A stretch of DNA of 64,000 nt. It comes from an uncultured bacterium (lineage in GTDB: Bacteria; Babelota; Babeliae; Babelales; Babelaceae). The DNA lies in the NCBI GenBank assembly GCA_963713855.1, contig OY970209.1, forward strand, positions 1,024,001 to 1,088,000. The letters run 5' to 3'. Position numbers: made by a program. Of the stretch, positions 54,001 through 63,000 are shown one piece after another (within the stretch, counting starts at the first letter, position 1; each line of letters begins with the position of its first letter).

Positions 54001-57000
54001 ACCAAAATTTAAATAATGATTTTGGTAAAGCCATACAATGACTAATACCGCTAAGGTCGCAGATAGGATTTTTGTAATGTTTGCTTGATTAGCTTCTCGA
54101 ACTTCTCTTTGACGATCTCGACGTTCCATCCGTCTTTCGCGCCGTTCTCGCTGTGCCTGAGCTGCTTCAAAGTTTGCATTCCACACTTCTTCTATCTCGA
54201 CAAGAAGTTCTTCTCTTTCAGAAGCATAGGCTTGCTGATTTGCGATGGCTCTGAGTAATTGCAATGGAGTTTCTGGTACCTCAGCAGTGGTGGCTTTAGG
54301 GTCTGCTCCAGCTACAAGAAGACCGTATATACCATCCCAATCTCCTACCATTGCAACCGCCTGCAAAGGTGTTGCTCTTATGATTGATGGGCCTCCCTCA
54401 GGGTAGACGCGAAAGTCACCCAGGTTAAAAAATGGCGCAGGGCTATTAATATCACCATATCGTCGTATATGTTTTTGCAAAGCCTTCTTATACTTGCCAG
54501 CTTGGCCAGTTAGTGAATCAGCAGCTACAGAGACAATATCCTCGGCCTGAACGTCATGGAAGGAGGCGCTTCTAGTTACATATATTCTGCCGTCGGGTAA
54601 AACAAGTCGGATTTGTTTGTTGCCGCATACAAATCTATCGTGGAGAAGGTAGCTAGTTGATCGGGGGGCGCTCCATATGGTTTTACGCTCCATACCTGTT
54701 GCTATAAAAGATAAACCGAGAGCACTTGTAAAAATAATAGTAATTATTTTCATCGTTTTTCTGTCTTTCGATAAGAGTATTTAATCCCGTTATTATAGCA
54801 ATTTTATTTTCCGATAGGAAGCTAGAATTCCTGCAGAATTAACGCATCCGAGTAACTATTTTTCCGAACAATTTTGAAAAAAACGTGAATCTCCACACTT
54901 CGTGCTAACGTTATCGAAAGATAGTTTGCTAGCCGAAGCTTGACGTAGTTGTATGATGAGAAATCAAATGCATTATCAAACCGAGCAGTATAGCAAGTAA
55001 GACTGGATTTATCTGCTCCCGCTGTTGCACAATTGCTCGCCGCCTGACTCGTTCTTCTCTTCTTCTTTGTTGTACCTCCGGCATTACCGGCGGTTCGCGT
55101 CTTTGTTCTCTTAATAGCCTAGCTGATTCAAGCGTTTCATCCCAGGCGGCTCTTACATCAGCACCAAGGCTTGAGCTTGATTCTTGATTTTGTGCGTTTG
55201 CTGCTATGAGTAATAGCTCCAATGGAGTTTCAGGAACATCACTAGTTGTCGCTTGCGAGTCAGCGCCTTCCACAAGTAATCCATGTATGATATTGAGATT
55301 GCCTAGCACTGCGGCTGCTTGAAGTGGTGTTGCCATGAGCGGCCTCAAACCTCCTTCAGGATACTCATTAGCACTTGCAAGTGTAAAAAAGGGCGCCGGT
55401 TCGTTAATGCCGCCGTACCTACCGATATGTCTTGCAAGAGCTCGCTCAATTTCTACGGCGTTGTGAACTGATCGTGGATCAGACACTGCCGCCATGTCTA
55501 TGGCACGGTGCATTGTTCTTGCCAAATATCTGCGTCCATCAGGTAAAATGAGCATTGCCTTTTTTTGATCACGTACCAATCTAGATTGGTTGAGTAAATA
55601 TACTTGCTTGGGTGCAACCCATTTTTTATCATGCATAGCATTAGCCACAGAGGCTATACCAAGAATACTTATACAGACGGTGAAGAATATTTTCATGTGT
55701 ACATCCTTGGTACATACGATTGATATATTTTTTCTTAATATATCAATATTCTTCTAATTATTCAATAAGTATATTCTACTGGAATTTAAAAAACCGACAT
55801 CACATTTGTTTTGAGAATTCAGTATAGAGCTACTGATTTTCTCGTAACCAAGGAGTCTGTTGGTGAGTAACCTTTAAGCACAATGTTCGCTTTGTAAAGG
55901 AGGGCCGGCTCTGCATATTCCTCTTTTATCGCAGTTGTATAGCAGTGCCATTTCATCATTTTCTCATGCGTCGCTGAGCGCATTCTAGCTCTATTACCTT
56001 CTCATTTTTCTTTAGATAATTTAAAGAGTACTAGGCTGTTATTTGGCTTCTTCGGTTTGGAAGGTAGGAAATTAATAGGGTGTTTGCAACAAGTGTGCCA
56101 ATTGAGCACTTTCTTTGTAATCAAGCTGAGCCAAGGAAGCTCCCGTGTATTCATGGAAATTCTCCATGAGGCTGGCTAATAAAAAATTGAGCAGTGCATC
56201 ATCATGAAGCGCAGTGTATTCTTTAAAAATGTGCCGTAGTTCGAGAATCCAATTTTTAAGGTATGGAATGGTGTGTCTATTTTTTTTATGGGCACCAGCT
56301 AAAATTGGAATGAAGGATTGGTATGGTGTTTTATACATATTTTCGCGTAATATTTTGTCGAGTGCTTTGACTTTTTTGATGCTTGTGAGTATATGGGTTT
56401 GAGCACTTTTAGGAATGTCATGCGGATTTTTTAAGCTATGATACTGTGGTGCATTTTTTTCTAAAGAAGTTATTGAAGCATTTTTGATAATTTTTAAGAT
56501 TTCTGAGGTTGAAAATTCCTGGTAAAAGCCTTCTTGTGCGCCCATTTTTTCTGAATCTAGTGCAAATTTCTTAAGCTCGCTATTTGATTTTCCAAGAGCT
56601 ACAAAAAGCGTTTGCAATGGTGTTTTTCTATCGATAGCCTCGCGTGCCTTTTTTAGCACGTCATAGTCTATCTTTGATTGCCCATCAGTTATTACGACAA
56701 TATTTGCTCCATCAAATAGGCCGGCATTTGCTATAAGTTCCATTGCTTTTAAAAGAAAAGCTTGTATATCCGTTCCACCGCGGGTAGTTTTAAAAAGGTC
56801 TCGGTTTTTAAGGATATAAAGTGCTTCTTGAGCGTTAGTGATTTTAACCGGTTGTCCAATTTTGTTGTCAAAGGGAACAAGGACCACTTTGTGGCGATGA
56901 TGGCCCTGAGGCGAAGTATCGCTCAATGCTCTGCTTATAAATGCCAAAATAAGGGCTTCTTGGAATGTTTCTAACTCTCCTTGCATGCTGGCTGACGTAT

Positions 57001-60000: not shown

Positions 60001-63000
60001 TCTTCTGGTGCAAGCCAGTTTGGAATAAAGGCGATTGTGGTAAATCTGTTTAATAGTGCGGCGGCAGTGGAGCGTTGGCCGTTTTCGGTAAACTGTTGAT
60101 ATATTTCGTAGATATTGGAATTGCTTGTCGAAAGTATAGTTTCGAGTTCTGATATGATGACTTTGTTACCTGCCAATATTTTTCGTTCAATTAGTAGACT
60201 TAATAGCGCAGCTAAAGTTGCTGGATTTCCCTTATCGATTTCATCTATGAGTGCAACGCGAAAGTCTGCAAGAGACCCTTTAGTGTTGACTTCAAAGCGC
60301 CCTTCTTTAGCGGCAGTAAAATTTTGTCCGCCAACAAATACTTGTTCGTTCATCATCTGGTGCATCTGTAACTCGAAAGCGATCTCGTTATCTTGATCAT
60401 AGAGCCACTTAATGAATTTTGATTTTGCTCCCCCTGGTGGCCCATGAAGGAACATGTTTCCTTCCATAAGCCGGGTGATATGAAAAGCATGGTACACGGA
60501 ATCGAATTGTTTGAACTCTTTTTGAAAAAGAGCTTTTCTTCTACGTGCAATAGCTTGTGATTCTTGTAAGATTTTTTTTGAATGGTCTGTTAGCCCTTGA
60601 TAGTTTCCCTCGGTATCTCTTTTTATGTACTTTGTTGTATCTATTGAATCTAAAGCTGCTGCGCGCAACACCAGTAGTGCGCCAATCAAGCTTAATTTAC
60701 TAAAAGACGCGTGAATATTCATAAAGATCCTCGTCCGGCGCTGCGTACGCTGCATGCTTAACCTTCTTGCTTTCAAGAACGTAAGGATTTTATTTTTGTG
60801 CCGGCTCTCTAGTTTATCAATTTACTTATCTAAGCCAACTTCTTTTTTAGAAAACGCGCATTTTTAAACGATATTATGTTGGTTCTAAGTGAATTTTGAG
60901 TGAAGATTGTAAAGATATATTTTCTAGTTGGTGTCGTTGATCATGGTCAACATACAAGTCAGTTAATGAAGTGATAGATGCTAGAGGTTGTAGGCTTTGT
61001 ATTGGATTGTGGGCAATACGGACTTCTGTCAGGTGTTTGAGTGATGAGAGTGGTGAGATGTCTTCTAGTTGATTATCGCTTAGATCAATTATTTTTATAT
61101 TTAGGTTTTTAAGTGGCTCAATGTTTTTGATTTTGTTGTTAGCCAATTTTAGCTCTTTTAAGTTTATAAGGTAGCGCAGTGGTGAGCTATCTATTATGGT
61201 GTTATTGCTTAGATTGAGTTTTTCAAGTTTTTCGAGTAAGCCTATGGGTTCTATGCTTTGTATTTTGTTACTATTAGATAATGTTAATGATGTCATTCGT
61301 CTCATGGTTGCAAAAGGCGTTTTGCCTGCCATTGTATATAGTGCGCTCAAAGTATTTTGTATTCTTTGTGGATACTTGTCTTTGTGGTTGATTATAACGC
61401 GCAGATAGTCATCTTTATGTATAGGAATGGCTAAAGAATCATCCCATCGCCATTCGTTATCATTTTGGAATAAGTCGTTTTCGAATTGTAAAGTATATCT
61501 TTGGGTCTTTGCATTACTGGCTTTTTTGTGCCTGACGAGCCTAAATCCTAAGGTTTTTCCAGTCGTGTCTTTGTAATAGATAGGTCTTACTACATTTTCG
61601 AGAGTGGTTTTACCCATTACAGCATAAGCTGAACTGAAGACAAGGCCGCTATACAGTTTTTCACTTTTTTTTGTGTAGAGCGTGGATGCGTCTCTTGTAA
61701 ACTCCCAGATTGTTCCTGTCTCCTCATCATTATCTGTGGTAGCGAATGTTGTTTTAAATGCTTTTAGTTTTGAGGTTTTTGAAGGCCATTGTTTTCCTAC
61801 GTTTGTTTGTAAGAAAGCCTCATATTCATTAATGGATGGGAGCATATAGGTATATTTTTCATTGTTTTGATTCATTTTACCAACAAGCTCTTCGATGGTG
61901 GTTAAAGAGGCGTAGGTCATGAAGTTATTTGGCTCCATAGTGATCGTTTTGTAATCTATTGTTATCTCTTGTGTGCCTTTGTGTTCGAGCTCTTCTGGCA
62001 ATTGGAGCATTATGGTTGCCCATTGGTATTCAGTGATTGGTGTTTCTGTTATTTCTATATCATCATCGATGTTAAAGTTTTCTTGGTTGAGGCTTTGATA
62101 CATTCCTGCGGGTATACGGGTAAAATGCATTGGTTTGTATAGGTCTTGGGTGTTTTTATGGGCCTTATCGCGCAATTGACTTTCCTTTTGAAATACCTTG
62201 AGCATTTTTTGGCACCATTTTTTTAGCTCTTTTTTATCTATTTTGTGCTTATAGAGCTCTACAATTTTATTGAGCTGCTTCCAATAGATAAATACGGTAT
62301 GAGAAGCATATGCTTGGGCTTTAGGTATTGGATTATAGAGGATTTGTTTTTCTAGTATTTTTTGAATGCTTTCTGTTTTGAGGATGTCTTTATTTGCTAA
62401 GCTTTCTAGGAATAGAAGGACTTTTTCGGTTTGTGGTTTGTTTGGTCCCGTTTTGGCAGTTGAAACAATGATAAGGCTTAGTATGAGAGCTGCGATAAGC
62501 TTCATGTTCTACTCACTTTTTTGGCTTTTTCGTTAATGAAGCTTATCGAAAAATTAAATTTGCACAAATCTGGCCTTAGCTTTTTAGTGCGCCGTGTTCT
62601 TTTAGTTGACGTAGTAACCCGCGGATTCTTTTTTCTTTAAAATGTATAGCGGTCATGCCTAATTTACGCGCTGCGTGTATGTTTTCTTCCTGGTCATCAA
62701 TAAATATGCATTCTTGTGGATTTAATTTTGCTTTATCAAGCAGCTCGTGGAAGAAGGCGGGATCGGGCTTTACCTTTTTTTCGAATCCTGAGATGAAGAT
62801 ATTTTCTTTTTTAAAATGACGGAATATGTGCCTCAATGAGTCATCGTAATACATGAGATCAAATGAATCTGGGTCCCAGTTTGAAGCGATGTATGATTCG
62901 ATATCTGGGTTATTCGCGCATTTTTGAAGAACTATTCGCATGAGTGGCAGTGGTTTCATATTTTTGGCATAGAGTTTTGGAGAGAACAACAATTTAAGTG

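Follow-up and report, generated by a model that had tools for sequence, protein, structure and literature searches.

Organization of the locus

The window is the 64,000-nucleotide stretch of DNA analysed here, and its first base is contig position 1024001, not 1056001. Three minus-strand open reading frames were found where an earlier note had placed the operon g01007-g01006-g01005 (Table 1). Only the MoxR gene and that of its transglutaminase-vWA partner overlap, however; g01007 ends 151 bases before the ATG of g01006, whose reading frame is open upstream to a TTG at 60776. Promoter-like sites occurred at chance level (19 observed versus 19.4).

Table 1. Genes and features of the locus (positions in the window; all on the minus strand)
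Feature	Position (strand)	Residues	Remarks
g01007, third component	60874..62505 (-)	543 aa	signal peptide, conserved helical module, FGE/C-lectin-fold domain, LRRs
Signal-like peptide of g01007	62455..62505 (-)	~1-17	h-window 3.22; rule-based
Conserved helical module	62143..62433 (-)	25-121 (97 aa)	proposed docking adaptor; no Pfam family
FGE-sulfatase/C-lectin fold	61519..62124 (-)	128-329	proposed binder; no cysteines before GFRLV end motif
Leucine-rich repeats	60895..61323 (-)	~395-537	
g01006, MoxR-clade AAA+ ATPase	59232..60722 (-)	496 aa from ATG	signal-like N-terminus
Signal-like peptide of MoxR	60654..60722 (-)	~1-23	ends in Ala-x-Ala site; rule-based
Walker A	60420..60443 (-)	94-101	GPPGGAKS
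g01005, transglutaminase-vWA fusion	56072..59251 (-)	1059 aa (1057 from second Met)	start overlaps MoxR stop
Transglutaminase-like core	57977..58279 (-)	325-425	triad C366-H409-D424
vWA domain	56507..57022 (-)	~744-915	complete MIDAS

A constant module joined to a variable binder

The description of g01007 as mainly an LRR protein was rejected, as its signal, the helical module and a cysteine-less FGE/C-lectin fold all precede the repeats. The FGE fold was missed by a direct Pfam scan and recovered (E 3e-27) with a profile of neighbours that leaves g01007 out. In formylglycine-generating enzymes, two catalytic cysteines lie towards the C-terminal end of this domain. Ten proteins have 0 or 1 cysteine over the 60 residues that precede the end motif, and g01007 has none; lacking the pair, its domain was discarded as a candidate enzyme of this kind. 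No membrane segment was found in g01007.

The helical module is common to all third components, and a profile made solely from RCC1 and propeller members detects it in g01007 (E 2e-4). A protein search with the module, a weak method, returned just three proteins that were already known. The tails behind the module interchange among relatives (FGE, FGE plus LRR, RCC1 or PQQ-type propeller), each relative having 1-17 copies of the third component. Across one 10-gene binder array, conservation was 0.89 in the module versus 0.43 in the binding loops. The third component thus combines two modules, one constant and the other variable and non-enzymatic, a design that points to a recognition or conflict system rather than to a plain chaperone. 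In distant members, MoxR itself carries an FGE, WD40 or Lcl domain in a direct fusion; where that domain is FGE, the linker gave no alignment with the module (hhalign probability 0.2).

An intact ATPase and an intact cysteine enzyme

The search for MoxR homologues returned 59 proteins plus self, the number reported earlier. Walker B D160/E161, sensor-1 N201, the arginine finger R226 and sensor-2 R333 are fixed in all 60 covering rows; Walker A K100 is present in 59, the remaining row being a gap, so the invariance described before is borne out. Tandem MoxR forms keep the hydrolysis and inter-subunit residues unchanged in each of their two domains. The model (pLDDT 91) has a split helix 2 (helix-2 insert) and a pre-sensor-1 hairpin at 181-190, and its top fold matches are CHU_0153 and RavA. 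The protein scores 53.8 bits against bpMoxR (PF20030; cut-off 27). Its P-loop retains the AKS of the form GXXXTAKS but lacks the T, the form being said to occur "often" (Kaur et al. 2020). All catalytic motifs are intact, and motifs, fold and vWA partner place the protein in the MoxR clade. The motifs by themselves suggest a hexamer with ATPase activity.

The partner begins with a weak signal, a helical N-domain, a beta-sandwich with a transglutaminase core like that of TgpA and a disordered linker, followed by a helical domain, the vWA domain and a helical C-domain. The model of the partner shows only helices in the C-terminal region, and no propeller family matched. The best fold match is the periplasmic domain of TgpA. 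C366 is conserved in 22 of 23 partners, H409 and D424 in all 23, as is each of the MIDAS residues D751, S753, S755, T827 and D856. The 1,057-residue protein with an intact Cys-His-Asp triad and a C-terminal vWA was therefore correctly described, its length being counted from the second Met. A membrane-like segment (19-residue window of KD at least 1.8 past residue 60) was found in none of the 23 partners.

The MIDAS and the binders could also be read differently: the parts would be exported, with MoxR serving as a nucleotide sensor or a one-time scaffold for a transglutaminase-cross-linked adhesin lattice, on the surface or vesicle-borne, and not as a cycling motor. MIDAS adhesins are reported to act at the Bdellovibrio-prey interface (PMC13689555), the binder folds are adhesin-like and many members have a Cys motif downstream of the signal. 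This motif is missing, however, from 36/36 components in translocase-bearing genomes, no surface anchor was found, and a non-cycling MoxR sits poorly with hydrolysis and inter-subunit residues that are all fixed, even in tandem forms. We regard the lattice as improbable. For the window, which lacks the Cys motif, we dismissed the idea that a system-specific disulfide lock is the general mechanism.

Putative export signals

Signal calls were made by rule, without a trained predictor, at an h-window cut-off of 1.9. By this rule, 153/173 full-length MoxR relatives have signal-like N-termini, compared with 2% of internal windows. They comprise 51/58 full-length proteins among the 59 homologues and self, together with 102/115 further relatives, which extends the 42/51 counted before. 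Among controls, 86/3921 internal windows and 1291/8650 shuffled N-termini passed. A small-x-Ala site follows the h-region in 134/160 cases versus 221/640 control windows, and net charge falls from +1.6 before the h-region to -0.3 after it (n=153). Other signal types were limited to one Tat-like and one lipobox N-terminus. The N-termini vary as signals do (column conservation 0.30 versus 0.77 in the core). Within loci, fragments included, 29/32 MoxR, 28/32 partner and 27/28 binder frames are signal-like. By this rule, such N-termini appear to be a trait of the MoxR family.

All three window proteins had been credited with signal peptides. This holds for g01007 and MoxR, but the partner just fails (h-window 1.88); P0065, its nearest homologue, reaches 2.97. 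The background is high: 460/1056 open reading frames of the window's genome (44%) and 92/300 in the genome G374 pass, so that a run of three signals is nothing unusual in a single genome. A Met-after-signal motif marks 76/460 exported proteins of the window's genome (control 11); the sequences of the three window proteins do not contain it.

A different placement follows if the N-termini are membrane anchors, or a lineage-wide habit misread as signals, with the machine on the cytoplasmic face like MoxR-vWA-YebA. Besides the high background, 55/173 MoxR N-termini are hydrophobic enough over 19 residues (KD at least 1.9) to be anchors, and in G374 a sigma54-activator-like ATPase has a signal-like start, a possible sign that the rule is misleading. 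This reading is opposed by the positive-inside charge pattern, the Ala-x-Ala sites and the signal-like variability. Moreover, only 6/51 strict Walker-A frames of the window's genome were flagged, by eye one clear signal-bearing ATPase and one FtsH among them. The chance that the N-termini are anchors or misread appears slight. Export of an intact MoxR and its transglutaminase-vWA partner across several phyla is well supported by sequence, though still rule-based.

Linkage and distribution

Loci were retrieved with an alignment as query; a single protein as query found nothing. The transglutaminase-vWA gene adjoins MoxR in 28/31 loci, namely 19/21 from the alignment-based scan and 9/10 more distant ones, in agreement with the 15 of 18 seen earlier. 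Relatives of g01007, previously noted near MoxR in a third of loci (6/18), are indeed there and more frequent, at 13/21 in the alignment-based scan.

The helical module was detected in 8/662 genomes searched, all MoxR-bearing. Three of 261 genomes of the organism's own phylum have it, the same three that carry MoxR, as do 5/401 Bdellovibrionota, all among the six with a single-domain MoxR; two of these five contributed no row to the module profile. It was not seen in 2/22 single-MoxR genomes. The window contributes a Babelota-like member to the family. As a lead only, the window's MoxR is grouped in a quick tree with a "Proteobacteria" record that has a translocase. PADLOC families gave no match for the system.

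Possible sources of ATP outside the cytoplasm

Bacterial AAA+ motors are regarded as cytoplasmic because there is little ATP in the periplasm. Clear ATP/ADP translocases were found in 11/22 genomes, the window's included, and in none of the other 11 nor in any of a further set of 10. The assignment to host-dependent lineages is supported by translocases for the former 11, while the rest have no such support; moreover, translocases occur also in free-living bacteria (PMC5381601). The window's genome has two secretins. Signal-bearing NTPases other than MoxR occur there and also among sampled Bdellovibrionota.

The genomes without a translocase lend weight to envelope surveillance in which the organism uses its own ATP within its own periplasm, available at low steady levels or through leakage upon membrane damage. 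Host ATP would then be unneeded, and envelope or invader proteins would be cross-linked or cut, as with TgpA, whose periplasmic domain the partner resembles, or the Esr pathway, which combines MoxR, vWA, transglutaminase and a secreted propeller sensor and defends against epibionts (PMC13622651). Micromolar periplasmic ATP is reported in E. coli, although the same source stresses its rapid hydrolysis (PMC7432876). The patchy range and hypervariable binders fit defence, but the lack of a PADLOC match does not. In addition, no membrane-spanning part ties the system to the cytoplasm, and the organism-named records are mostly Bdellovibrionota or Myxococcota, with free-living phyla not surveyed. 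We consider envelope surveillance unlikely, if less so than the lattice or the anchors.

Relation to known systems

The RavA-ViaA pair of E. coli is cytoplasmic. Its ATPase matches in fold and has a similar Walker A with a vWA partner next door, but the window's proteins score far below the NCBIfam equivalog cut-offs (39.8 of 681; 21 of 500), and RavA-ViaA has neither enzyme domain nor binders.

Another comparison is with the beta-propeller MoxR-vWA-centric ternary conflict systems (Kaur et al. 2020, PMC7159879). As described there, they share the MoxR, the vWA and a third component of constant and variable non-enzymatic modules, as well as the bpMoxR match, the A-K-S form of the P-loop and FGS, propeller and repeat domains. 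Most have no features of secretion and act inside the cell, and the term "signal peptide" is absent from that text, whereas here, by rule, signal-like starts mark all three families of parts. Their vWA is strictly followed by a propeller of about four blades; here it shares a protein with a transglutaminase, and its end is helical. Their third component has a variable N-terminus, a membrane segment, TPR and propeller, whereas here the N-terminus is constant, the C-terminus variable and a membrane segment lacking.

A MoxR-vWA-YebA-like transglutaminase operon has been put forward as a system for ATP-dependent degradation (Zhang and Aravind 2012, PMC3495828), so that the MoxR-transglutaminase link was already known; TgpA of P. 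aeruginosa is periplasmic (PMC3507681). That operon likewise couples MoxR to vWA and an active transglutaminase-like domain, but the enzyme is described as a multi-pass membrane protein and the vWA as a separate gene. Here both form one soluble protein, MoxR carries a signal of its own and there are variable binders in addition. Together with a viral MoxR-vWA pair that the title of a reference in PMC7159879 links to extracellular tail development, these reports make the earlier phrase "known only from the cytoplasm" slightly too strong.

The Esr pathway of Actinomycetota, a preprint, holds its shared parts in one cluster with a variable sensor; it signals inward via kinases and FHA proteins, none of which is constant here, and only the sensor is described there as secreted. 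In systems with DGR-diversified targets (10.1101/2023.09.22.558884), variable C-lectin (FGE-fold) binders also accompany MoxR and vWA, and one such target is predicted there to be secreted. The window's genome, 91% complete, has no match to reverse transcriptase (PF00078); diversity here comes from gene arrays and domain swaps. No paper on a signal-bearing MoxR was found in the open-access literature, nor any that combines Bdellovibrionota, signal peptide and MoxR, although the supplements of Kaur et al. could list such loci.

Proposed mechanism

The observation of an exported MoxR with a transglutaminase-vWA partner is largely confirmed, and the system proves larger than first described. Its genes point to a MoxR-vWA ternary system, three-part rather than a pair, whose parts look exported, unlike the published ones. 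Of the extracytoplasmic chaperone pair proposed earlier, the export is supported by rule-based signals, while the unit has three parts and its design speaks against a plain chaperone. An intact ATPase, a cysteine enzyme and a binding protein that can be exchanged all seem to leave the cytoplasm of a small host-dependent bacterium.

With moderate confidence, our best reading is an extracytoplasmic machine that modifies proteins under the guidance of receptors and is powered by ATP from the host or prey. All three parts would leave the cytoplasm via Sec. Each binder would recognise a target and dock through the constant helical module; the vWA would hold a peptide while the MoxR ring pulls on the complex, and the transglutaminase-like domain would then cut, deamidate or cross-link the target. 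The exported machine probably runs on host-derived ATP, used either in the periplasm, the compartment that host ATP must pass to reach the inner-membrane translocase, or once the machine has been released into the host cell. When not in a host, it would be idle for lack of ATP.

More tentatively, it may be an exported, self-contained ATP-dependent protease or deamidase with interchangeable substrate receptors, delivered into host or prey and switched on solely by the victim's ATP. The receptors would combine the constant docking module with a variable LRR, RCC1, propeller or lectin domain, by the same logic as eukaryotic F-box receptors, and the carriers would be parasites and predators of several phyla.

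Because the conserved family retains both the signals for export and a complete hydrolysis site, an extracytoplasmic ATP motor, and the question of whose ATP it uses, become directly testable. The family would add to the MoxR-vWA ternary systems an exported type that brings a new docking domain and a repertoire of receptors, carried by poorly known parasites and predators.

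The MoxR ATPase and its transglutaminase–vWA partner

The third component g01007, the MoxR ATPase g01006 and the transglutaminase–vWA partner g01005 are encoded by three minus-strand genes, each single-copy in the genome. The end of g01007, the upstream gene, lies 151 bases from the MoxR start (ATG 60722), and the reading frame of the 1059-aa partner opens before that of the 496-aa ATPase has closed. Frameshifts in EF-G, EF-Tu and several ribosomal genes show that the assembly has indel errors; the three reading frames are nevertheless intact. A HAD-family hydrolase with a signal-like start is encoded 70 bases upstream of g01007 and was not seen adjoining related MoxR loci.

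The score of g01006 exceeded the bpMoxR and AAA_5 cut-offs, and its predicted structure (pLDDT 91) best matched CHU_0153 and RavA. Walker A/B, sensor 1, the Arg finger and sensor 2 are invariant in a 60-row MoxR alignment. The homologue set of the earlier note proved real but too narrow, as 146 representatives were found at E 1e-30 or better. This wider set, in which K100, N201 and R226 show no substitutions across aligned domains, includes tandem MoxR–MoxR proteins and fusions to FGE (a C-lectin-type fold), WD40 and Lcl domains. The tandem and fusion forms inspected have signal-like starts, among them MoxR–MoxR–FGE divergent from the partner gene and MoxR–WD40 or MoxR–Lcl proteins (loci L030, L032, L033 and L034; proteins P0161, P0196, P0201 and P0203).

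The transglutaminase triad residues are kept in 22, 23 and 23 of 23 aligned partners, all 23 of which have a full MIDAS. The first match of the g01005 predicted structure (pLDDT 80, pTM 0.40) was the TgpA periplasmic domain, followed by vWA domains. The partner gene adjoins MoxR in 19/21 loci (of the other two, one has a truncated MoxR and one runs into the end of its contig) and in 9/10 distant loci, five divergently oriented. At L027 and L029, ankyrin proteins with signal-like starts follow the pair. The family is patchy, occurring in 3/261 genomes of its own phylum and in 15/401 drawn from the phylum to which a Bdellovibrionales record belongs; by record title, Myxococcota and other groups are also represented.

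Signal-like N-termini

Signal-like starts were called by a simple n-h-c rule with no trained predictor behind it. They were found in 51/58 full-length MoxR proteins of the first homologue set and 102/115 of the wider one, where a protein counts as full-length if 60–260 residues precede Walker A; 2 and 29 others did not qualify and were excluded. As controls, 86/3921 internal windows and 1291/8650 shuffles passed. Among ORFs in the loci, fragments counted, 29/32 MoxR, 28/32 partners and 27/28 binders passed; g01005 itself narrowly fails. A small-x-Ala site follows the hydrophobic window in 134/160 MoxR relatives versus 221/640 controls, and one of the 160 is Tat-like and one has a lipobox.

The N-termini might instead be uncleaved anchors: 55/173 are long enough, and the background is high (44% of ORFs in this genome; 31% across 400 kb sampled from G374, a compared genome). 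We consider this improbable, however, as net charge averages +1.6 ahead of the hydrophobic core and −0.3 behind it, an orientation predicted to place the MoxR protein outside, and only 6/51 strict Walker-A ORFs of the genome are flagged, housekeeping ATPases mostly not.

Behind the signal, Cys-x-x-x-Leu/Phe/Met occurs in 44/55 components from genomes that lack a clear translocase versus 0/36 from genomes that have one (loci L003–L034, including two Pseudobdellovibrionaceae records). The count, which is confounded by kinship, leaves out four duplicates among the loci and four ORFs lacking an N-terminus. A looser motif is modestly enriched on unrelated exported G374 proteins (13/92; control 5) and not in the window's genome (44/460 versus 40). 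Being missing from translocase-genome components, the window's own included, and unenriched here, the motif is no invariant feature of the MoxR system. Separately, small residue–Met–polar directly follows the hydrophobic core in 76/460 signal-like proteins of this genome (11 in the control) and may be a further targeting mark used throughout the lineage.

A helical module in the third component

Proteins encoded beside the MoxR–partner pair have in common, behind the signal, a helical module of 97 residues, followed by FGE, FGE plus LRR, RCC1 or a PQQ-type propeller. A profile made solely from 10 members with RCC1 or propeller domains also retrieved those with FGE and LRR domains, including g01007 (E 2e-4). 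Residues 128–329 of g01007 form an FGE/C-lectin fold without the catalytic cysteines.

The module was found in 13/21 loci and in 20/22 genomes with single-domain MoxR (1–17 matches each). Profile searches found it in 0/8 genomes of the tandem-MoxR type. No genome lacking MoxR yielded it: the 3/261 positives in the own phylum are the three MoxR bearers, and all 5/401 in the Bdellovibrionota phylum carry MoxR. Most of these positive genomes supplied profile rows; G263 and G272 did not. Across a 10-gene array in G278, conservation is 0.89 in the module versus 0.43 in the binding loops. That the exported parts serve as a scaffold or adhesin is a reading to which we give little credence.

Features outside and around the three-gene locus
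Feature	Location	Strand	Remark
g01007, third component	window 60874-62505	-
g01006, MoxR	window 59232-60722	-
g01005, partner	window 56072-59251	-
HAD-family hydrolase	window 62576-63439	-
Small residue–Met–polar examples	window 53983-54753, 54929-55696	-
Frameshift-split genes	L057:638-3830 (G000:C1 ~838600-841800)
Ten tandem signal, module and C-lectin genes, G278	L061:2103-13361	+	Away from MoxR locus; binding loops hypervariable
AAA ATPase, signal-like start	G000:C1:1099943-1101412	-
MutS-like protein, signal-like start	G000:C1:1519026-1521017	+
P-loop kinase-like protein, signal-like start	G000:C1:1093474-1094127	+
Ppx/GppA protein, signal-like start	G000:C1:1092411-1093466	+
ClpB-like double AAA+ protein, signal-like start, G374	L056:9161-11875	-
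Sigma54-activator-type AAA+ protein, G374	L054:14142-15413	-	Signal-like start, then Cys motif
Two tandem secretin-domain proteins	G000:C1:253699-259557	-	Very large (~1000 aa)

ATP supply and genome setting

The window spans positions 1024001-1088000 of a single-contig genome of 1.52 Mb and 41% G+C, which has clustered ATP/ADP translocase genes, numerous ankyrin-type proteins with signal-like starts, and 460/1056 signal-like ORFs by the n-h-c rule, close to the 44% signal-bearing proteins reported for Chromulinavorax (PMC6561590). From its size, translocases, ankyrin-type proteins and signal share, we infer membership of the Babelota (Dependentiae).

Clear translocases are encoded in 11/22 genomes (8 at E <1e-100, 3 near 1e-25), with partial matches only in 3 more, and in 0/10 further Bdellovibrionota (one partial match). 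In translocase bearers, host ATP would have to cross the periplasm. A review (PMC13689555) cites work on predators whose title names an ATP uptake system.

Other NTPases here and in G374 have signal-like starts. Sigma54-type activators need bacterial cytoplasm, and the G374 protein may therefore be delivered to prey. The signal-like starts on ATPases of both genomes suggest that exporting such proteins is customary in these lineages, which favours delivery to, or feeding from, the host; alternatively, the n-h-c rule could be misleading in them. Surveillance in the organism's own periplasm seems rather unlikely. The two secretins encoded in the genome are candidates for the outer-membrane export step.

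Proposed mechanism and relation to ternary systems

Domains, motifs, linkage, co-occurrence and signal-like starts are probably best read as a binder-guided MoxR/vWA/cysteine-enzyme machine. The binder would recognize a target and dock through its constant helical module, the vWA domain would grip, MoxR would pull, and the cysteine enzyme would then cut or modify the target; every step would take place outside the cytoplasm and draw on ATP from the host.

The constant-plus-variable third component follows the design of MoxR–vWA ternary systems, as described in PMC7159879, but the system does not show the traits that define the beta-propeller type; the paper reports no secretion features for most such systems. 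Searches confined to open-access papers turned up no account of a MoxR family with signal peptides. An exported location is unusual for a system of the known MoxR–vWA kind.
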